Assembly (NCBI GenBank): GCA_021432655.1
Contig: MU271195.1
Location: 124,001 to 188,000 of the forward strand
Direction: 5' to 3'
Source: Atractiella rhizophila
Taxonomy: Eukaryota
DNA length: 64,000 bases
The stretch's first letter is position 1. Every line of letters starts with the position of its first letter. The translations under genes and the position numbers were made by a program. The notes beneath the pieces are model-generated. The model did no database searches. It was not told the DNA's origin and saw only the letters and a list, made by a program, of their open reading frames with translations. Positions 1,487-64,000 of this stretch are shown here, piece after piece.

Positions 1487-1618
1487 CTGGTTTCCCCAAT
1501 CACGCGTAAGCAGCGAAATAAGAAACAAAGTGATTTATTACGGAGATTATGTGAAAACATACCTGGTTTCCCCAATCACGCGTAAGCAGCGAAATAAGAA
1601 ACAAAGTGATTGGGGAAA
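1487..1618 (-). repeat. 49-bp direct repeat pair plus 13-bp inverted repeat in the presumed 5' LTR; encloses a 76-nt GTATGT...CAG intron-like segment (1487-1562)
   Basis: Identical copies at 1487-1535 and 1563-1611. TTTCCCCAATCAC (1567-1579) pairs with GTGATTGGGGAAA (1606-1618). The LTR boundaries themselves are not resolved. Confidence 0.85.
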
Positions 1619-24216: not shown

Positions 24217-24300
24217 GCTCTCGTGGCCAAGTTGGCTAAGGCGCTCCCCTAGTATTCACGCTTCAGGGAGAGATCGCCGGTTCGAATCCGGTCGAGAGCA
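24217..24300 (+). tRNA. tRNA-Thr(AGT) with 10-nt intron (24255-24264)
   Basis: Acceptor GCTCTCG/CGAGAGC, D arm GCC..GGC, anticodon stem CTCCC/GGGAG with CT-AGT-A, T arm GCCGG-TTCGAAT-CCGGT, then TTTTT Pol III terminator at 24305-24309. Confidence 0.93.
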
Positions 24301-52428: not shown

Positions 52429-53115
52429 TGACATTGAAATGTATCACAGCCATTGTAACTATCACATCCAATGACAGCAGACTAACATTTTATAGGCAAG
52501 CCTCCTTACCATAGGAAAGTGATACTTTGTTGAGCACTACCCACATCTCACATCGTTTGATATCTGATAACATCATATACTCAATGTTTTTCAATTCAGC
52601 AGGCTCAAGATGGCTCCTCACCATTTCTCTTTTCTCCGTTCCATTCTTATACCACTCCGCTTCTTCAACCAGCCATTTTTTGCTTGATGACACACTAACA
52701 GTTATCAATACAGGTGTCTCTTCACCTTCAATGCCATTGCAGTTCTCACTCCACCTTTATCTCACTAGGTCCAATTCTCCTACCTTGATAAGTCTACAGC
52801 CTTCCTCTGTTCCCTCTTAATGTGCTGTTCTGCACTGTCTACACTCCTCCATGCAAGCTTTGTCAGATGCTCACTTGAGCTTCTAGGAGCATTAGATGGA
52901 AATATTAAATATTGGATATATTTTTATTCCTACTCATATTGTAAAATATAATATGTGATCATATTTTATTATGTAGATGTCAGGGCTGACACACTATAAG
53001 GCCCTTGATCTTCTTAGACACAGGTACTAGAAATCCCAGTTTTAGCATTGTTAAAGTAACCCATAGGGGACATCTGCATATATGGGATGCCAAACTATGG
53101 CTTTCCTCATTCTTT

Positions 53116-53184
53116 CAACTTCAGACATACCAGAAGAGCAACTTCAAACATACCGGTAGAGCAACTTCGGACATACCAGTAGAG
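53116..53184. repeat. Three tandem 23-bp repeats
   Basis: CAACTTCAGACATACCAGAAGAG / CAACTTCAAACATACCGGTAGAG / CAACTTCGGACATACCAGTAGAG. Confidence 0.8.
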
Positions 53185-54197
53185 GATAAGGCTCCTTGAT
53201 CTGAGGAATTAAATTGCCAAGTCTCCACCATCACATGATCATCGCAATAGACCATTATATCCCTTTCTCTATCACATCAGTGGACCTTAGGACTCAACCA
53301 CACGCTCTAGGAAGATGTTTCAGATGGAAATGGCTCCTAGTGGGTTGGAATTTGCTGGATTGAACAGTCTTGCTGCAGCAAATGATGCCACTATGGCTCA
53401 AGCAAGCCCTTGAGTGGATGGCAGACACTGGTGCAACTTCCTACATGTCTCCCCATTGTCACTGTTCAGAACCTACCAGAAGAAGGTTATTCCTATCAGG
53501 GTAGCAAGTGGAGAAGTTGATTTGGAGTGCTATTGGGAGCTTGATCTTTGAAGCCAAGCTGGGGGAGAAGAAGACCATCACTATCACCATTTCAGATGTC
53601 CTGCATGTCCCCAAGCTCTATGACAACCTCCTATCAGTCTTCAAGCTCACCATCTACAAGGAAATGAGGGTCTCCATCAGGCACAACAAGTTTCTCTTCT
53701 TGCAGGATCAAAAACTCTCCCTCACTGCCTGTAGACTACAAGAACGGAAGCATGGCTGGAATACTCAATGGGAACACCCTCCCTGCTCCAGAATTCGCTG
53801 GAAATACTTCTACACTGCCCATGGATGCTTCTCTATGGCATAGGAGACTTGGACACCTGAATTATGAGGACATTGAGCGTCTGAAGAGGAAGGCACTTGT
53901 GAATGGGATGATTTTTGACCTGGAGGATGACCCTATTTGCGAGCCATGCCTAGCTGGGAAGCAGCATAGGGTCTTCAACAAGTCAGCAGAGACTAGGGAG
54001 AAGGAAGTATTGGGTAGGATTAGCTCATATCTGCATGGACTTCTTCCAGTCACATCCAGAGAAGGATATCATTATTGGGTCAGCTTCATTGACGAAGCAC
54101 AAATCATTGCACAATTGTCTTCCTCAAGAAGAAATCAGAGGCCCCAGAACTCTTCAAGACCTTCAAGAATTGGGTAGAGAATTTCACTGGGAAGAAG

Positions 54198-54276
54198 TGC
54201 TGGATTTAGCCAATTGCACTAAAATGACCAGTCATCCCAACATTGCAGATTAACCCTTTATACCCAAGGTTCAACA
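54198..54276 (+). mobile_element. 79-bp TG...CA mini solo-LTR-like insertion with AGAAG TSD
   Basis: TGCTGGA...TTCAACA flanked by AGAAG (54193-54197, 54277-54281). Removal restores the integrase sequence TGKKIKKFREDKEG. Confidence 0.88.
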
Positions 54277-54737
54277 AGAAGATCAAGAAGTTTAGAGAGG
54301 ACAAGGAAGGCGCTTATTCCTCCAAGGAATTTGATCAATATCTTAAGGCCTGTGGTATCCAGCGCGAACAGACGAGCAAGAACTCTCCTCACCAGAATAG
54401 CAGGGCAGAACAAAGCAATAGGACGATTCAGGAGACTATGGTTGCCATGTTTGAAGAATCTGGGCTTCCGCTCTTTCTCTGGCCATCTGTCGCTTCAGCG
54501 GTTGTCCACATTCGCAACAGACAGCTTCAAGCTTCAATCAACCATGCTATTCCCCACACAAAACTCACTGGACTTACTCCAACCATCTCCAGATTCAGAA
54601 TCATTGGATGCACTGCCTATGTTCAAGATCCTAAGCTCCTTCTGAACTTGTACTCGAAAATGCGCATTTCTAGGCTATTCCCTTGCAGCGAAAGGGTGGG
54701 AGTTCTGGGATCCCATTAGAAAGAAGGTCTACGTTCG

Positions 54738-55328
54738 TGTTAGGGCTGACACTATGTGCGGTCACCGACGGGCGATGCGTCTGTAGTGGAGATAAACCTA
54801 AGTGCATAATATGACATGAAGACTAACCTGTAGTGGAGATAAACCTAAGAGAATACTCTAAGGTCACCTCCACTACTCTCTGATCTATATATACAAGCGG
54901 AATAACACTGCCACAGAGCGTAGGGGAGAGCAGATGAAACATATAAGAGAACTAAAGGAGAAGTTGAGAGAATCTGATGCTGGATGGAGCTAGGGGACAG
55001 AGATTGGTGGTCAAAGATGATGATATTGATAGGGAAACACATACCTAGGGGACAGAGATTGGTGGTCAAAGATGATGACCGCCTAACCTGCCCCCTAGGG
55101 GGCTAAAACTCCGAAATGAAGCAAACACAACAAAGGTGGCTGACCACACAACACAAGACCACAAAATATAACACCTAATCCAACAGAAGTGACAGTGGGA
55201 TTACATGGAGTTAATAAGAGGAGGATAGGCACAATTGGGCTAAGTGGTAATGTAGGTGCAAATGGGCGAACGGGTGCCAATTCGCAGGGAACGCAAATGG
55301 GCAATTTGCGTAAGATGCAAACCTGACA
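54738..55328 (-). mobile_element. Solo LTR (365 bp without the nested insert), TSD GTTCG
   Basis: TGTTAGG...CCTGACA termini; GTTCG at 54733-54737 and 55329-55333; splits KKVYVR|DVARFDE of element A. Strand inferred from the splice module. Confidence 0.88.
54965..55185 (-). mobile_element. 221-bp solo LTR of the element-B family nested in the previous LTR, TSD GAAGT
   Basis: TGAGAG...TCCAACA with GAAGT on both sides; reverse complement of the LTR at 58335-58501 plus 55 nt. Confidence 0.92.
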
Positions 55329-56745
55329 GTTCGAGATGTTGCCAGATTTGATGAGAGAGAGATGCTCTGCAAGGTGAGAAAGGAGAAAATTATGTTGGAA
55401 GAGCCACAGGGACAACTTGATGAGTGGAAGCAGCATCAGGATCAGGTGGGAGATGGACAGAACAATGCTCCAGCCGCTCCTCCAGTCAGGATTTCGCTAG
55501 ACAACGACGAGGAAGATGAAGATGCATGGATTCAACAGCCAGGAGGAGCACCGCCTACACCTCAGGAACAACACAGACCACTTGGAATACAGTCTCCAAA
55601 TCGATTTCAGCCCCTGCAGGTCGTCAAAGAAGAAGAAAGAGAGGCGTCTCCAGACCCACTACAGCTTGTGCCTGAACGCTTTAGGACACCACCTCGTCAG
55701 TACACCATGCAGAGAGATCCTTGGACAGGAGTTCACATGCCTACATTCTCAGAGTCTCCAGATCCACTCCAGATCATCCCAACAATGCCAGATCGACCTC
55801 CTCCAGCAGCTACAACACCTCCTCCTGTCACCAGGTCTTCAAGAATTTATTCTACAAGTAGAGGACGTCCTGTCGACAGATTTAGGACCCTAGAAGCGCC
55901 TCAAAACAACGACAAAGGGTCAACAGACGAGCTTGGGATGTTGGTATAGGAATGTGACATCCTCACTGAGCCAGAGGCGATGGAATATGGCTATATGCTT
56001 GTCACAGAACATGCCATGAGTGCAGCAACAGGAGTAGAGGTCCCTCAGTCATATTCAAGAGCGATGGCAAGCCCAAATGCGAAGGAATGGCATGAAGCGA
56101 CAGTGAAGGAGATTCAATCTCACTTGGACAACAAGAGTTGGATTCTGGTCAAACCGCCTAAAGGAGCAAAAATCGTTGGTTCTCGATGGGTGTTTGCGGT
56201 TAAGAAGAAGTCGGATGGTTCTATCGAGCGCTTCAAGGCCAGATTCGTCATCAAGGGGTTCTCTCAACGCTCTGGATTCAACTACTTTGATACTTTTGCA
56301 TCAACGGTCAAATGGGCGACACTTAGGACGATTCTTTCGCTCGCTTGTGTCTTGGACATGGAGCTGGAGTCAGTGGATATCTCTACGGCATTAACGGCGA
56401 TATGGATGCAGAGGTCTATGCACAACAACCAGAAGGTCATCCACAGGGTCCTCCAGAGTACGTTCTCAAGGTAATCAAGGCCATCTATGGCACAAGGTAA
56501 GGAGGACGTCAATGGCAGAAGAAACTCGATAAGGAACTCGTTGATATGGGATTTAAGAAGATCAAGAGCGACTCTAGTCTGTGGATTTACTCGAAGGCGG
56601 ACATCAAAGTACTTGTCCCGGTCTTTGTGGATGATATTACGATCGCTAGCACATCAAAGGGTGCTGTAGAGGACTTCAAGAGGGAGTTAGGAAAGCGATT
56701 CAAACTCAGAGACCTTGGACCAACGGAATTCCTACTTGGGGTTCG

Positions 56746-56954
56746 TGAGAGAATCTGATGCTGGATGGAGCTAGGGGACAGTGATTGGTGGTCAAAGATG
56801 ATGACATTGATAGGGAAACACATACCTAGGGGACAGTGATTGGTGGTCAAAGATGATGACCGCCTAAACTGCCCCCTAGGGGGCTAAAACTCCGAAGTGA
56901 AGCAAACAAAACAGAGGTGGCTGACCACACAAACATATAACACCTAATCCAACA
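56746..56954 (-). mobile_element. 209-bp solo LTR of the element-B family inserted in the RT of element A, TSD GTTCG
   Basis: GTTCG at 56741-56745 and 56955-56959; splits FLLGVR|IRRDR. Confidence 0.92.
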
Positions 56955-58031
56955 GTTCGTATTAGGAGAGATAGAAAGCGAAGAATGATGTGGTTGGATC
57001 AAGAACAGTATGTCAAGGACCTTCTGGAACGCCAACAGATGGATGACTGCAACCCTGTCCTCACTCCTCTCAACATTGGACACGGTCTCAGCAAGCAGGA
57101 CTGCCCTCAGAAAAAGGAAGAACAAGAAGAAATGCGCACAATCCCTTACAGCAACGTTGTTGGCTCCATGATGTACTTGGCCATCTCCACTCGTCTGGAT
57201 ATTGCTCACGCAGTCTCTGTCCTTGGAAAGTACCTCTCTAATCCTGGAAAGAAGCACTGGGAAGCGGCCAAGCATCTTCTATGGTACCTCAAAGGCACTC
57301 AGAACTTAGGAATTGAGTATTCTGCAACTGGTTTTGACCTCAAGCAACCTTTTCACACTTTCTGCGATGCAGATTTTGCTGGGTGCAAGGATACTGGACG
57401 TTCTACGGGAGGCTATCTCCTCAAGATAGGCAATGGAGTGGTCAGTTGGAGCAGCAAACTACAATCCCTCGTTGCCCTTTCCACAACTGAAGCAGAATAT
57501 GTCTCAGGAGTCTCAGCTGGCCAAGAAGTCGTCTGGCTAAGGAATCTTTTAGAAGAAATTGGCTTCGCTCCTCAAGGTCCTACTCCCCTCTTCACAGACA
57601 GTAGCAGCGCTCTCCAGGTATCCAAGAACCCTGAGCACCATGGTCGAATGAAACACCTGGACCTTTGCTTTTATTGGCTCAGAGATGTTGTTGAGATGGG
57701 CAAGATCAGTCCAGTCTTCTGTCGGGGTGTCGATATGCCAGCAGACCTCCTCACCAAGACACTTCCAGTAGCTAGCGTGGATAAGTTTCGACTTATGATG
57801 GGTTTGCGCCCCTACCCAAGTGTATGAGGCAGTTATGGGGCGCAATAAAAAAATCCTTTCCCCCTCTGTGGAGTTATAAGACGCCGCTTTTAGCGGTACG
57901 AAGACTTTTCATCTTCTTTTCATGCAAAACTAATATGCTTTCTGCTTTATATCGAGTATACATTGTATGAATTTGGTGGGAGATTCTCTGGATGTGGTGG
58001 GAGCGTCAAGAGACAGCTGCCCAGGTGGTAG

Positions 58032-58166
58032 TGTTAGTTGTAGTGTGTTGTTTTGGTCATCTGCCTCTTATGACTCATATGAGTCATCACTATGTAGTTT
58101 AGTTTTGCCTAGGGGTGTTGGTGCTCATTATTGACCACCAACTACTCCTAGCCTTAGATCCTTACA
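58032..58166 (+). repeat. 3' LTR of element A (135 bp)
   Basis: TGTTAG...CCTTACA after a purine-rich tract; homologous copies at 60880-61026 and 62371-62510 (reverse). Confidence 0.85.
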
Positions 58167-58334
58167 CATTTTGGCTATGCAAAGACAGTGGCTTTGGTTT
58201 CTCAGTCATTACTGGAAGAACCTTACAAAAGATGTCAGAAGATATGTTGACTCCTGTCCGAGCTGCCAGAGAAATAAAGCTGTAAATCAGAACCCATTGG
58301 AGCTTTCAGACCCTCATGTATACCACCATCAAGA
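58167..58334 (+). mobile_element. Ty3/gypsy integrase zinc-binding (H2C2) fragment
   Basis: HFGYAKT...YWKNLTKDVRRYVDSCPSCQRNK, with a frameshift. Confidence 0.8.
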
Positions 58335-60879
58335 TGTTGGATTAGGTGTTATATTTCATGGTGTTATGTTTGTGTGGTCAGCCACCTCTGTTTTGTTTGC
58401 TTCACTTCGGAGTTTTAGCCCCCTAGGGGGCAGTTTAGGCGGTCATCATTTTTGACCACCAATCTCTGTCCCCTAGCTCCATCCAGCATCAGATTCTCTC
58501 ATGGTAGCGAGAGAGGTGGCTAGTGATTGACAGATCAGTTTTGCCACCCACTTGGTTGAAAATTTTGATCACTCAGCCATCCGTTGTCCAATCGGTTTGA
58601 AACGTTGGGATCATAAACGAGACCCCCTTACGCCTATATCCACCCATTTCTACGAAGATCGGACGATCCAAACTCGAATTTTATCACCATGGCCGAAGAA
58701 AGTAAAATTTTGATTACCCCCCTTGGAGAGAAGAACTATGGCACCTGGTGCATTGATATGCAGGAGGAATTGATGCGAAAGGGGTTATGGGAGATAGTCT
58801 CTGGAGTGGAGACAAAACCAGAAGATTTGAAGGAACAAAAACAGTGGCAAAAGGACAGCTCCAAAGCGGCTGGGATCCTGTTCCTTAGCCTAGAAGCGAC
58901 CCAGAAAGCCCATGTGGTCTCTGTCCTTCAAGATCCAGTCAAGATCTGGTCTACCCTTCAAGAAATCCACCAACAGAAGCGCTCCTCAACTCGTTTCACT
59001 GCCCTCAACACCCTCCTTGCCATCCAGAAGAAGGAAAACGAATCTCTCATCACCCTGTGTGCCAGAAGCGACCAGCTGCTTCTAGACTTCACCAACACGC
59101 TTTCCAAAGACTATTCCCTTGATGATTTGAAGGAAGATCTCCAATCCTTCGCTCTCATTCGCTCCTTAGGCCCAGAATACACTAGTTTTGTCCAGAACTT
59201 AACCCTGATGACATCCACCGACCTCCAATCGATCAAACAAGCATTCTACTCGATCCAAGCCACCAAGAACTCGGAGGAAGCCATCTCCAACACTCAAATG
59301 GCAAATCAGGAGATCCAAGCCACCAAGAACTCGGAGGAAGCCATCTCCAACACTCAAATGGCAAATCAGGCATCCAGCAGCAACAGAGGACGAGGAGGAT
59401 GGCATCCCAGAGGTGGCAGAGGTGGTGGAAGAGGAGGAACTCGAGATTTTTCGCAATCTGTGTGCAACTACTGCCACAGAAAAGGCCACTTCATCTCCCA
59501 CTGCCCAGAAACTGCTTCTGGACGCAATAGGATCGAGTTGGAGAAGTACAGATCGAAGTATGGCAAGCTGGAAGTGGTGAAGGAAGCCAAAGTCGAAGGG
59601 GGAAAGCCAGAATTCGCTGGAGAGACAAGTTATGCAGCGGTAGATGATACCATTAGTCGCCAGAAAGCTGGGACTGACTAGATTATTGATACAGGAGCAA
59701 CTTCATCAATGACTCCACATTCCCACTTCTTCAAATCCTATCAAAAACACGTTGTACCCATCAGAGTTGCAAATGGAGAAGTGATCTGGTCTACTGGGAT
59801 AGGAGAAGTGGTGATTGAGGCGAAATTGGAGGATAAAAAGTCGAAGAAGGTCACCATTCACAATGTCCTACACGTCCCCAAATTGTGCAGCAATCTCCTA
59901 TCTGTTTTCAAGCTCACAATCTTCGAAGGTGTAACTGTGACCATCATTGGGAGCAGAGTACGCTTCCTCAAGGCTGGAAATCCCTGTTTCACAGCGACAG
60001 TTGATCACAGGAGAGGAAGCATGAATGCCATCATTGATGGAAGAACACTCATGGCCTCAGAATTCGTTGCACACGCCTCCTCTCCCCTCTAAACGCTTCC
60101 CTGTGGCACAGGAGACTTGCCCACTTAAATCATGAAGATGTAAAGCGAATGCTGAAGAAAGGACTCGTGAAAGGAATGATTCTGGACTCAGAGGACCCTC
60201 CTGACCCCATCTGTGAGCCCTGCATCGCTGGGAAGCAGCATAGGATCTACAACAAGGCTGCAGAGAATAGGGAGACGGAAATTTTAGGGAGGATCAGCTC
60301 AGATCTTCATGGACCGCTCCCAGTTGCCTCAAGAGAAGGATTTCGCTATTGGGTGACGTTTATAGACGAGGCAACAAGTCACTGGACGATTGCTTTTCTC
60401 AGGAAGAAGTCAGAAGCACCTCAACGCTTTAAGGAGTACAAAGCTGTGATGGAGACCTTGACTGGAAGGAAAATCAAGAGATTCAGGGAGGACAAAGAAG
60501 GCGCCTACTCCTCAACAGATTCGAAATTGTGGCATCCAGCATGAGCAAACGATTAGAAACTCTCCTCATCAAAATGGGAAAGCAGAGAGAGCAAATAGGA
60601 CGATTCAGGAGGGTATGGTGGCGATACTGGAGGAATCTGGTTTGCCACTATTCCTCTGGCCTCACCTTGCTTCGGCTGTTGTTCACATCAGGAACAGATC
60701 CCCCTCTTCCTCCATCCATCACTCCATTCCCTACACAAAATTAACAGGACAATTGGTCGATATTTCACATTTCAGAGCTCCACTGCCTATGTCCAAGTTC
60801 AGAAGGAAGAAAGACAGCACAGTCTGGCATCCCATACACGCAGATGTGCCTTTATAGGTTACTCTACCAACGCTAAAGG
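58335..60879 (+). mobile_element. Decayed, 3'-truncated Ty1/copia element B: 167-bp 5' LTR (58335-58501), PBS (58502-58513), gag (58689-59681), PR, INT
   Basis: TGTTGG...CTCTCA then TGGTAGCGAGAG; gag NYGTW, CNYCHRKGHFISHC knuckle, 60-bp tandem duplication in gag; IIDTGATSSMT; LWHRRLAH; SDLHGP; stops and frameshifts. Confidence 0.93.
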
Positions 60880-61026
60880 TGTAAGGATCTAAGGCTAGGA
60901 GTGTTTGGTGGTCAATAATAAGCACATTGGAGAAGTATAGAGAGACATACCTAGGAGTGGTTGGTGGTCAATAATGAGCACCAACACTCCTAGGCAGAAC
61001 TAAACTACATAGTGATGACTCATACG
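60880..61026 (-). mobile_element. Truncated LTR of the A/C family abutting element B integrase
   Basis: Begins TGTAAGGATCTAAGG, the reverse complement of the 58166 end; 56 nt longer internally than the 135-bp copy. Confidence 0.85.
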
Positions 61027-62079
61027 AAATTGATCAACATCTGGTACTTTCCCATCCTTGATATCTGTGAAAAACTTCTTTACCACATTCTCATCTATGC
61101 TTCACTTCCCCAACATATTCTTGCGAAGTGGGACATTGTTTAAGTTGGTCTTTGGCAGTGGGTACGGGACCTTGGACCAATACAGAAAGTTGTTGTCACA
61201 TATGTTGCGCTTGTGATTGTTTGTATTCTTCTCACCATACCCATCCTTTTGCTTCTTGCATTGACCACAAGTCTTTTCAGCTCCAAGGTTGCCCTTCTTT
61301 GTTGGCTTTGTGTGCGTCACTTTCACTGGTGGAAGAAGTGTCATTTAGAGTGTCCAGAATACTTTGATTGCTGCTCAACACATTGTTAGTAAATTCCTTT
61401 TCTTTTTAATAAAATTGTTCAAACTCACAGTCTCCTCTGGCTACTCTCTGAATATGACGAGCAATCTCCTTCTCAATTGCAAATAAACTATTTTTGTGTA
61501 TCAAAGATTTGGGGGCTCTGAAAGGGCTAGATTATCGTGAGGCGATATCAGTGAACCTAGGCGTAAACAACCTCAACCTTCTACAGTGTTGAGGTTGAGA
61601 TGACGATTCCAGAGTTGAGAAGGATGGGATGGTTTTGGTGAATCCCAGGATGGAGTAGATAGTTGAGAGGTTGGAGTACGCGATGAGATGTTGCTTGAAT
61701 GAGTGAGAAAGTCGAAGTTTGATGACGGTACACCTAAATCAATGCCTTTAATACCCATTCCACAGTGAAACAAGAACAAGAAAGAACGGACCGGCTGCAA
61801 AATCAAGACTACTTTTGCGCTTACTGAAAGAAGCTTCTATCCCCTTGCTATTTCCAAGTGCAAAATCCAGATCCTTCTGTGAATGCTCGCTTTCCTGATC
61901 ATCTGATGAATAATCTCCAGAAACCATTACACCTTCAGTTTGAAAAAGAGAAATGTGATGTTTAAAGAGGTTATTGTTTATGTAGAATATACTTAACTGA
62001 GAAGTTAGTTGGACGTATTTGGTTATATTGTCGGTAACAGCTCAGAAACAGAGATAGAGGATTATTATGATGGAGAGTA

Positions 62080-62157
62080 TGTTGAACTTAGGTACAAAGG
62101 GTTAATCTGCACTGTTGGTAAATGACAAGTCATTTTAGCCCAGTGGTTAATCCAACA
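62080..62157 (-). mobile_element. 78-bp TG...CA mini solo-LTR-like element, TSD GAGTA
   Basis: TGTTGAA...TCCAACA with GAGTA at 62075-62079 and 62158-62162; reverse-complement homolog of 54198-54276. Confidence 0.88.
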
Positions 62158-62370
62158 GAGTAGACCAATGCGCCCTTCTAAGAACTATTGATGGTGTACT
62201 TGTAATAGATGCAGGAAGGATTCCCACAGTGGGAAATGGGTGCATCGTCATATGTTTCGAAAACATCAGGTCAATCAGCAAGATAAAGGGCCTACGACGG
62301 AGACTTCAGTCAGGATGATACAGCAGATTAATGGAGAAAGTCATATCAGCATTATTTCTATATTCGGGCC

Positions 62371-64000
62371 TTTAAGGATCTAAGGTTGGTGGTCGTAATA
62401 ATGAGGCATTGATGACTTCTAGAGGCAGAACTAAACTACATAGTGATGACTCATACGCGTCATAAGAGTCATAAGAGGCAGATGACCAAAACAACACGCT
62501 ACAACTAACACTCCCACCTGGGCAGCTGTCTCTTGATGCTCCCACCAAATCCAGAGAATCTCCCACCGAATTCACACAATGTATACTCAATATAAAGCAG
62601 AAAGCATATTAGTTTTGCAATGAAAAGAAGAGGAAAAGTCCTCGTACCGCTTAAAGCGACGTCTTATAACCCCACAGAGGAGGAAAGGGATTTTATTGCG
62701 CCACATAACTGCCTCAGACACTTGGGTAGGGGCGCAAACCCATCATAACTCGAAACTTGTCCACGCTGGTGACTGGAAGTGCCTTGGTAAGGAGGTCTGC
62801 TGGCATATCGACACCCGGACAGAAGACTGGACTGATCTTGCCCATCTCAACAACATCCCTGAGCCAATAAAAGTGAAGGTCCAGGTGTTTCATTCGACCA
62901 TGGTGCTCAGGGTTCTTGGATACCTGGAGAGCGCTGCTGCTGTCTGTGAAGAGGGGAGTAGGACCTTGAGGAGTGAAGCCAATCTCTTCTAAAAGATTCC
63001 TTAGCCAGACAACTTCTTGACCTGCTGAGACTCCTGAGACATATTCTGCTTCGGTAGTAGAAAGGGCAACGAGGGTTTGCAGTTTGCTGCTCCAACTGAC
63101 TGCTCCGTTGCCTATCTTGAGGAGATAGCTGTAATACGAATAACATAAATGAGCTTCTTCGTACTTTATGAGTCATTTTCTTTTGTCGCAGTCTTGCTTC
63201 CGTGACCTCGTTTCTCTCCCTCACACACAACCACCATCTTCTCTGAGCTTGCCTGTATTGAGGTATAGCTAGTGCTGTGTGTGAGGTGAGTACTCGTTAA
63301 TTTCTACCTTTATTGTGCTTTGCTCATCGGGCACTTGTTTAAGGGCACATTTCATCTCCCTTTCCGAGTTCGAGGTATTTTATTGTTCTAGAACACTCAA
63401 AGAGGGTGTGTTATTTCCTTTTCACCCTCTTCTCGCTTATTCATGTCCGTTCTCTTTCGTAGGGCTGTGCCAACAGCCTTGTCCGCTCTCTGTTAGCCCT
63501 CGCGGACTCTTTGGGTGTTTTAGGTACGCATACTTCATTGTTACTTATGCTTCTATGTTCCTTTTCTTATACTATGCAAACCATGTTTTAGAACCCATTA
63601 TTTCGAACTCACCGCCGCTAAACGAGTCTTGCCAGCTTTCACTTAGTCGCATTATAATAGCCTCCCGTAGAACGTGCAGTATCCTTGCACCCAGCAAAAT
63701 CTGCATCGCAGAAGGCGTGAAAAGGTTGCATGAGGTCAAAACCAGCTGCACAATACTCGATTCCTAAGTTCTGAGTGCCTTTGAGGTATCGTAGAAGATG
63801 CTTGGCCGCTTCCCAGTGCTTCTTTCCTGGGTTAGAGAGGTACTTTCCGAGGACAGAGACTGCATGAGCGATATCTGGACGAGTGGAGATGGCCAAGTAC
63901 ATCGTGGAGCCAACAACGTTGCTGTGAGGGATTGTGCGCATTTCTTCTTGTTCTTCCTTTGTCTGAGGGCAGTCCTGCTTGCTGAGACCGTGTCCAACAT
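62371..64000 (-). mobile_element. Ty1/copia element C (RT-RNase H, 3' UTR and 3' LTR 62371-62510), same family as A; runs off the right edge
   Basis: Closely similar, inverted, to 57080-58166 (MRTIP..NVVGS.MYLAIST..DIAHAVS, CDADFAG). Confidence 0.93.
63130..63656 (+). mobile_element. 527-bp solo LTR inserted in element C RNase H, TSD ATAGC
   Basis: TGTAATACGA...TCGCATTATA inverted termini (terminal CA apparently mutated to TA); ATAGC at 63125-63129 and 63657-63661. Confidence 0.85.

Follow-up and report, generated by a model that had tools for sequence, protein, structure and literature searches.

A predicted hairpin at the edge of a duplicated segment in the long terminal repeats of four Ty1/copia-type families

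Described systems and the present module

Retroelements should lose introns that are spliced from their genomic RNA, because their replication goes through RNA; at the same time, transcripts that carry introns are better expressed in many fungi, where unusual transcripts are handled as foreign. This report concerns a module in the long terminal repeats (LTRs) of four families of retrotransposons of the Ty1/copia type in a 64-kb stretch of DNA (contig MU271195.1, positions 124,001 to 188,000; hereafter the window). In this module a stable predicted hairpin stands directly before a GTATGT-type border that reads as a 5′ splice site, and the segment holding the loop and 3′ arm of the hairpin (A1) is repeated as a second copy (A2) at the 3′ end of the intron-like insert that follows.

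Retroviral reverse transcriptase deletes direct repeats by template switching, and loss of one copy plus the spacer would yield exactly the short allele of the LTRs described here; such deletion is an error process on artificial or accidental repeats, whereas the copia repeat is kept in four families, with the edge of its first copy at a donor consensus. In the Rogers model, introns reportedly arise by tandem duplication of an AGGT-containing segment. The copia module resembles that model in that the exon end equals the intron end and removal of the intron restores the unduplicated sequence, and it differs in that the unique part of the insert duplicates neither flank and that the short allele has no GT after AG.

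For LTR introns as such, spliced transcripts within maize LTRs have been presented as the first evidence, to their authors’ knowledge (bioRxiv 10.64898/2026.05.08.723830). Those introns average 1303 bp and belong to long LTRs with long-noncoding-RNA-like transcripts, and the accessible part of that preprint mentions neither an exon-end duplicate nor a donor hairpin. The literature searched yielded no account of fungal copia elements whose LTR intron repeats the exon end or has a hairpin on its donor side.

Two devices of human immunodeficiency virus 1 (HIV-1) come closest to the hairpin. The splice donor (SD) hairpin, a stem formed locally where a retroelement has its major 5′ splice site, has been proposed to balance spliced and unspliced RNA, and as described in the part of the source available it masks that site (PMC4974535). 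It covers all 11 nt of the site and lies downstream of the primer-binding site (PBS), outside the LTR. The copia stem, in contrast, covers the exon side and +1 to +3 at most, lies inside the LTR and has its 3′ arm duplicated in the intron; masking of the whole U1-binding site, as in the HIV-1 SD type, was not found. The stability of the transactivation response hairpin and its DNA complement (TAR/cTAR) is reported, in the accessible text, to govern annealing in minus-strand transfer, and stabilisation of the HIV-1 R hairpin to impair first-strand transfer (PMC13185573). The likeness here is a stable LTR hairpin that is predicted to fold as RNA and also as the complementary DNA; on whether the copia stem lies within R, the hints from TATA spacing are mixed. 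TAR is the transfer homology itself, whereas the copia stem would conceal one of two possible homologies. By analogy, the copia hairpin may work like the SD and TAR/cTAR devices, and it is placed in neither class.

Hairpin, repeat and insert in four LTR families

LTR copies were defined by self-BLAST and sequence reading, and the sample comprises eight copies in the window, seven of them with a hairpin, and one outside copy from a metagenome contig (L003); all secondary structures are computational predictions. In the four families, named here B, A/C, 365-bp and Left, the sense strand has the same order: 5′ arm, loop, 3′ arm, GTATGT or GTTAGT, 21–27 unique nt, A2, a tail of 15–46 nt and the PBS. 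The final bases of A1 are TAG or CAG, and those of A2, which repeats the 22–49 nt directly ahead of the donor, are YAG. The donor hexamer is GTATGT in B, A/C and Left and GTTAGT in the 365-bp LTR.

A first-pass annotation of this DNA had placed a hairpin at or next to the splice donor in every LTR family, and its stems were recovered where it had put them. At the level of families the statement holds, since the stem ends 0–4 nt before GTATGT or GTTAGT in four of four, the donor itself being a reading of the sequence; at the level of copies it does not, one of the eight having no hairpin. The B hairpin of the short-allele 5′ LTR (58423..58476, plus strand; ΔG −30.4 kcal/mol, z −6.7) has an 11-bp outer stem, in which CTAGGGGGCAG (58423–58433) pairs with CTGTCCCCTAG (58466–58476) with one G-U, and an inner stem of GGCGGTCA and TGACCACC (58438–58445/58453–58460) with one C-A mismatch. 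In a long-allele B solo LTR the hairpin lies at 56826..56880 (minus; ΔG −31.6, or −34.6 with intron position +1), where it forms the most stable 56-nt fold in the window and where its 3′ arm is the end of A1 (56826–56860); a second long-allele B solo LTR (54965–55185) carries it at 55045..55099 (minus). The A/C hairpin occupies 58108..58151 (plus) in the short allele and 60951..60994 (minus) in the long one, with ΔG −25.8, or −32.6 when extended over the donor GTA. That of the 365-bp LTR (54828..54876, minus; arms 54830–54838/54868–54876) ends 2 nt before CAG/GTTAGT, with ΔG −29.1 in the sense and −23.3 in the antisense strand, and that of the Left 5′ LTR (1563..1618, minus; ΔG −19.5, z −4.8) has a perfect 13-bp stem (1567–1579/1606–1618) ending 4 nt before CCAG/GTATGT. 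The stem is unchanged in short alleles; in B and A/C LTRs of the long type it extends over intron position +1, or +1 and +2, which adds about 4–6 kcal/mol.

From the 5′ arm to the last exon base, the seven hairpins have minimum free energies (MFEs) of −19.5 to −31.6 kcal/mol and z scores of −4.8 to −7.4. A comparison with shuffled sequence, suggested along with the annotation, came out in favour of the hairpins: for none of the seven did any of 300 dinucleotide shuffles attain the sense-strand MFE. Among 31,972 overlapping 56-nt windows scanned on both strands (mean −9.4, standard deviation 4.1), LTR hairpins take the first five places in stability, namely those of the three B copies, the long A/C LTR and the 365-bp LTR, and even the weakest stem (Left, −19.5) is matched or exceeded by only 1.26% of windows. 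An Rfam scan of 52500–64000 gave no match at gathering score, its one sub-threshold hit being mir-4766 on the A/C hairpin (25.7 bits against 72, E 0.19).

The arms of the four families have no sequence in common, yet a stable stem stands at the same place in each, and this is a stronger argument than alignment covariation. The best explanation may be that the hairpin is a selected single-strand structure common to a clade of fungal-type Ty1/copia elements, a proposal that forms part of the model developed below. It is not universal: the A/C-type 3′ LTR at 62383–62510 (minus) has neither hairpin nor insert (MFE −2.3, z +1.6) and is a counter-example at copy level. Its 5′ arm, A1 and donor are missing, the remainder resembles the unique part and a truncated A2 joined to the tail, and it could be an aberrant transfer or deletion product.

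The inserts of the long alleles, all read on the minus strand, measure 55, 55, 56, 47 and 76 nt. The B solo LTR carries GTATGT...CCCCTAG at 56771..56825, composed of a unique part (56806–56825) and A2 (56771–56805; 35/35 against A1), and the nested B solo LTR carries its insert at 54990..55044, with unique part 55024–55044 and A2 54990–55023 (34/34 against A1 at 55045–55078). In the long A/C LTR, GTATGT...CTCCTAG (60895..60950) divides into 60926–60950 and an A2 at 60895–60925 that matches A1 at 29 of 31 positions; in the 365-bp LTR, GTTAGT...CTACAG (54781..54827) divides into 54803–54827 and A2 at 54781–54802 (22/22 against A1 at 54828–54849). The Left insert (1487..1562) consists of 1536–1562 and A2 at 1487–1535, identical to A1 (1563–1611) over 49 of 49 nt. 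The short alleles, 58335–58501 and 58032–58166, differ from the long ones by exactly the insert and have no GT after AG.

When exact direct repeats of at least 14 nt with a period of 30–130 were sought, eight loci were found in the window, five of which are the LTR modules. All five have GTNNGT directly after copy 1 and AG at the repeat end, a combination seen in none of the other three. AGGTATGT occurs five times in the window, both strands counted, four of these at the A1 edge. For the unique part, no second copy was found in the window at up to 3 mismatches, and it resembles neither flank. Donor-like hexamers also occur at 53108–53177, where three tandem 23-nt units each hold GGTATGT on the minus strand (ACATACC on the plus); these units sit right of a leader-like segment (53041–53129) resembling sequence beside the long A/C LTR.

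Within each long LTR the two copies of the segment are nearly or fully alike: they agree over 34/34 nt in both long B LTRs and at the values given above elsewhere, and in L003 the last 28 nt of A1 and A2 are identical. Between B and A/C, the A segment is 58–66% identical. The two long B LTRs differ at one site, and each has its own variant in A1 and A2 alike; the 5′-arm base facing that site differs too. Such concerted evolution calls for recurrent copying between the copies, and selection for pairing alone is insufficient because the shared differences include loop positions. Judged from these sequences, some process that copies one repeat onto the other, or that regenerates the duplication, seems to be needed on a retrotransposition time scale, and template switching by reverse transcriptase would be the natural candidate for it. 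A role of A1 and A2 as homology for template switching thus gains indirect support from their concerted evolution.

Copies outside the window add to this picture. A metagenome pattern scan gave five loci, among which L003 is the sole relative: an independent copy of the A/C 5′ LTR, of the long allele, which runs straight into the same PBS as in the window. The module pattern had 2 chance matches in bacterial metagenome-assembled genomes and 0 in viral contigs, and a search of viral contigs with the B-element gag confirmed no relative. In DNA contigs the LTR families are very abundant, with 5,784 related contigs in run X1. Contigs of the DNA runs X1, X3, X4 and X9 were compared with the window, their joints and differences being listed in part; empty sites for both B solo LTRs and for the 365-bp LTR are present in contigs of other runs, and the long form occurs at the position of the short A/C LTR in run X1 contigs. 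No 55-nt skip at the long B LTRs was found among the joints listed for the four runs. Joints of the 365 family in run X1 (54853/54854 to 54818) indicate either a third unit or a longer A2, which are indistinguishable, and nothing is drawn from them. Over 54700–61100, differences from run X1 contigs are dominated by transitions (A>G at 72, T>C at 55, G>A at 43 and C>T at 33 places), each transversion occurring at 7–15.

Proposed masking of one repeat copy and the competing readings

A2 includes the loop and the 3′ arm and merely 0–6 nt of the 5′ arm, which bears out the earlier remark that copy 1 lies in the stem and copy 2 lacks most of the partner arm; for this reason, a single 5′ arm must choose between the two copies. 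Partition functions for the six long LTRs (five in the window and L003) give the 5′ arm a mean pair probability of 0.84–0.998 with A1 and of 0.000–0.065 with A2. Opening the A1 arm by constraint costs 7.1–12.2 kcal/mol, after which the 5′ arm pairs with A2 in most constrained folds. The last 12 nt are predicted to be unpaired with a probability of 0.00–0.20 in A1 and 0.19–0.68 in A2, the latter being the more open in all six. With one 5′ arm, paired with A1, A2 would therefore be the accessible copy. The annotation had gone further, holding that the stem hides copy 1 from use both as splice acceptor and as strand-transfer landing site; its structural half is borne out by the pairing probabilities, and its functional half belongs to the model set out below.

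The insert is best read as an intron, because the donor hexamer is kept across families in an otherwise diverged unique part and because the length fits short host introns. In all four families its borders are CAG or TAG, then GTATGT or GTTAGT, and YAG at the end. Its 47–76 nt fall within the 44–99 nt of 31 host intron candidates, which come from a crude scan and were pre-selected for GTNNGT. A candidate branch-point motif, TTGAC, stands about 21–25 nt upstream of YAG in B and A/C, and CTTAC in Left, as read by eye against a rough host branch consensus; a reading by eye of the 365-bp LTR gave no clear branch-point motif. Splicing of the insert, as well as the transcription start and the poly(A) site, is something we infer from sequence. 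Two other roles for parts of the module were considered. GTATGT as a poly(A) efficiency element of the UAUGU type is rated low, because the 365-bp LTR has GTTAGT and the short alleles do not have the segment; pairing of the A/tail junction with the leader after the PBS, in a U5-leader stem, is not general, extending over 8 nt in L003 and about 5 nt in B and being absent from Left.

The reading preferred here, to which a probability of roughly 0.35 is assigned, is that the stem keeps A1 paired and thereby leaves A2 as the accessible copy for strand transfer and splicing. The stem would sequester the first of two identical segments of 22–49 nt, A1 being the last part of a putative exon 1 that abuts a GTATGT-type 5′ splice site, and A2 being the 3′ end of an intron-like insert of 47–76 nt beside the U5 tail and the PBS. 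A2 would thus lie open both to the spliceosome, with its branch point, pyrimidine tract and YAG, and to the nascent minus-strand cDNA. If the 5′ insert were spliced out, or skipped by reverse transcriptase, the complement of A would form the end of the strong-stop cDNA. Transfer of this end to A1 of the 3′ copy would give a short LTR. If the 3′ copy bears the insert and the end lands on its A2 instead, the long LTR would be rebuilt and A2 overwritten by A1, and the concerted evolution would be accounted for. At transfer, the cDNA would have to have its 3′ end inside A, either through a transcription start near the left edge of A or through premature transfer.

In a more ambitious version, which is tentative and less probable, the LTR intron would restore itself: it would be spliced, A2 of an unspliced 3′ copy would act as a second, R-like landing pad for strong-stop cDNA, and the long LTR would be rebuilt, with A2 overwritten by A1, in each cycle, the 5′ arm occurring perhaps solely in the 3′ copy of the transcript if the start is the left edge of A. 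If true, this would mean that a retroelement can carry an intron through reverse transcription by a route not described before. Three features are linked in the module, in that the 3′ end of the insert copies the exon end, the copies co-evolve, and one of them is held in a conserved stem; together they would give a testable mechanism by which an intron is kept, or deliberately shed, across retrotransposition, and would link RNA structure to the choice of a strand-transfer site. At a minimum, the result is a conserved structural module of one copia clade, usable to annotate LTRs and to type long and short alleles.

A number of results weigh against the masking model, beginning with the small sample. 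It had been claimed at first that G-U pairs favour the sense RNA. Across eight hairpins the MFE structures hold 10 G-U pairs in the sense and 3 in the antisense strand, and three one-sided stem changes within families are wobble-compatible in the sense only, but the sense strand is more stable in just three of the eight (ΔΔG −5.8 to +1.1), or in four of seven with slightly different end points, and the C-A mismatch of the B inner stem would be G-U in the antisense. The G-U argument is not significant, and the claim falls, since sense and antisense stabilities are about equal, the very outcome that its author had named as speaking against it; predicted thermodynamics cannot assign the strand. 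Predicted folds range from −19.5 to −35.6 kcal/mol for RNA and from −12.4 to −20.3 for minus-strand DNA across the eight hairpins; either strand also folds when DNA parameters are used (−12 to −20 kcal/mol), and the cDNA could therefore form the stem too.

Covariation, also proposed at the outset as a check, is weak: RNAalifold, run on six hairpins of B and A/C aligned by MAFFT, shows a double change at one pair in 15, with a covariation term of −0.61. MAFFT aligns the B and A/C stems out of register; counted by eye from the stem base, in a register of our own choosing, three double changes separate B from A/C (G-C/A-U, G-U/U-A and C-G/G-C). At position 58114, nearly all other copies in DNA contigs have A, which gives A-U where the window copy has G-U.

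The 5′ arm does not clearly alter the predicted accessibility of the donor (−3 to +6) in the six long LTRs, the values with and without it being 0.41/0.34, 0.31/0.34, 0.29/0.35, 0.28/0.26, 0.76/0.51 and 0.18/0.60; the predicted stem thus masks A1 more than the splice site. Full-length strong-stop cDNA that includes the 5′ arm would not be extendable after landing on A2. TATA motifs begin 38 nt (Left) and 44 nt (365-bp LTR) before A1, a loose fit to a start near A1, and in the B and A/C LTRs no clear TATA was found upstream of A1. In the 365-bp LTR the 5′ arm probably lies upstream of the start, because the TATA begins just 17 nt before it. Finally, direct-repeat deletion during reverse transcription explains the short allele equally well.

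The same donor values bear on an unlikely alternative, in which the stem only attenuates splicing by holding the exon side of the 5′ splice site (−11 to −1, with +1 to +3 in some families), so that U1 binding is weakened and the insert partly retained, and in which the A1/A2 duplication is a separate matter. The stem lies 0–4 nt from the donor in all four families and, in B and A/C LTRs that carry the insert, reaches +1 or both +1 and +2. Its position suits this alternative, as does the masking of the 5′ splice site by the HIV-1 SD hairpin in what is accessible of that account (PMC4974535). Most of the U1 target (+1 to +6), however, lies outside the stem, predicted donor accessibility is similar with and without the 5′ arm, and the repetition of A1 by A2 and their concerted evolution are left unexplained.

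TATA spacing and the constancy of the stem bear on another alternative, ranked level with attenuation. Stem-loops near the 5′ end are common in retroelements, among them Ty1, murine leukaemia virus and HIV-1, and the copia hairpin might be a generic, TAR-like stem-loop of the R region or 5′ end, serving RNA stability, translation control, packaging, dimerisation or reverse transcriptase pausing, with its proximity to the donor incidental and A2 keeping the sequence beside the tail and PBS the same in spliced and unspliced RNA. The stem is indeed unchanged in short alleles, and the TATAAAAG box of the Left LTR starts 31 nt before the 5′ arm, a spacing at which the RNA would begin with the stem. 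In the 365-bp LTR, on the other hand, the TATA lies 17 nt before the arm, and a start about 30 nt downstream would cut into it; moreover, a generic stem-loop does not explain why the stem abuts the donor exactly in four families that have diverged, nor why A1 and A2 are homogenised.

Improbable by comparison is a reading without splicing, in which reverse transcriptase, by switching templates, lengthens and shortens a partial tandem repeat of the form A-B-A, the hairpin is the pause site that sets off the switches and GTATGT has some other role, for example as a 3′-end signal of the UAUGU type. Repeat turnover would homogenise the copies too; exactly one repeat period separates the long from the short alleles, the gag of the B element has its own tandem duplication of 60 nt, so that events of this kind do occur here, and some 365-family contigs of run X1 have an extra or longer unit, ambiguous as these are. 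It does not account for a unique part that begins with GTATGT in three families and GTTAGT in one while its remainder has diverged, nor for a repeat that always ends in YAG. No further copy of the unique part is present in the window; an allele that has become short cannot recover it, and still the long form survives in all four families. Least credible is an inverted repeat acting as DNA, either bound by a dimeric factor or forming a cruciform in the promoter of the LTR. Sense and antisense are about equally stable and CCTAGG palindromes stand at the stem base in B and A/C, but the arms are 17–32 nt apart and their sequences are unrelated between families, with pairing kept partly through G-U, which in duplex DNA would be mismatches.

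The elements and their surroundings

The window is eukaryotic and by its sequence looks fungal, and its host genes include CLASP, COX15, a Sec7-family gene, a DEAD helicase and ribosomal L19. From 52.9 to 64 kb it consists of nested Ty1/copia fragments, with copia gag, Pol_BBD, gag_pre-integrs, rve_3 and RVT_2 domains. A Retrotran_gag_2 match lies in the B-element open reading frame (ORF) 58617–59681 (E 6e-18), and another in 3–1043 on the minus strand (E 1e-4, below Pfam’s cut-off); in pol, gag_pre-integrs (53668–54177) is followed by a weak rve_3 (54228–54719) and by RVT_2 (55950–56474). With a copia-type gag and with protease and integrase ahead of reverse transcriptase, the elements are Ty1/copia (Pseudoviridae-type) LTR retrotransposons, and their LTRs have TG...CA ends, 5-bp target-site duplications (TSDs) and, adjoining the 5′ LTR, a tRNA-type PBS as in that group.

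In L003, as at 58502 and at 1440 (minus) in the window, the PBS TGGTAGCGAGAG stands immediately next to the LTR. The B-family 5′ LTR (58335–58501, plus) is followed by it at 58502–58513 and then by the copia gag ORF, in which a near-perfect tandem duplication of 60 nt, or 20 codons, lies at 59252–59370 (plus; 59 nt of exact identity, period 60). The Left element, a second copia element truncated by the left edge of the window, has its 5′ LTR at about 1441–1752, its PBS at 1429–1440 and its gag at 3–1478, all on the minus strand.

Among the remaining copies, the B solo LTR at 56746–56954 (minus) has the TSD GTTCG and is inserted in the reverse transcriptase region of a copia element; the other B solo LTR (minus, TSD GAAGT) lies within the 365-bp solo LTR (54739–54964 and about 55191–55329, minus), which it splits and which itself sits in the integrase region of the same copia element, an order of nesting read from the TSDs. 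The short A/C LTR is on the plus strand, its end at 58166 being supported by a run X3 contig that continues into the PBS, and the long one runs from its end at 60880 to about 61045 (minus).

The U3 of the A/C LTR (58064–58092, plus, and in L003) holds two or three TGACTCA/TGAGTCA sites of the AP-1/Gcn4-like kind in a palindromic arrangement, about 40–65 nt upstream of A1, and contigs from other runs have one more 9-nt unit there. Elsewhere in the window, ARAGORN calls a tRNA-Gly(CCC) at 24217–24300 (plus), which overlaps the end of the opposite-strand COX15-like ORF and may be a real gene or a false call.

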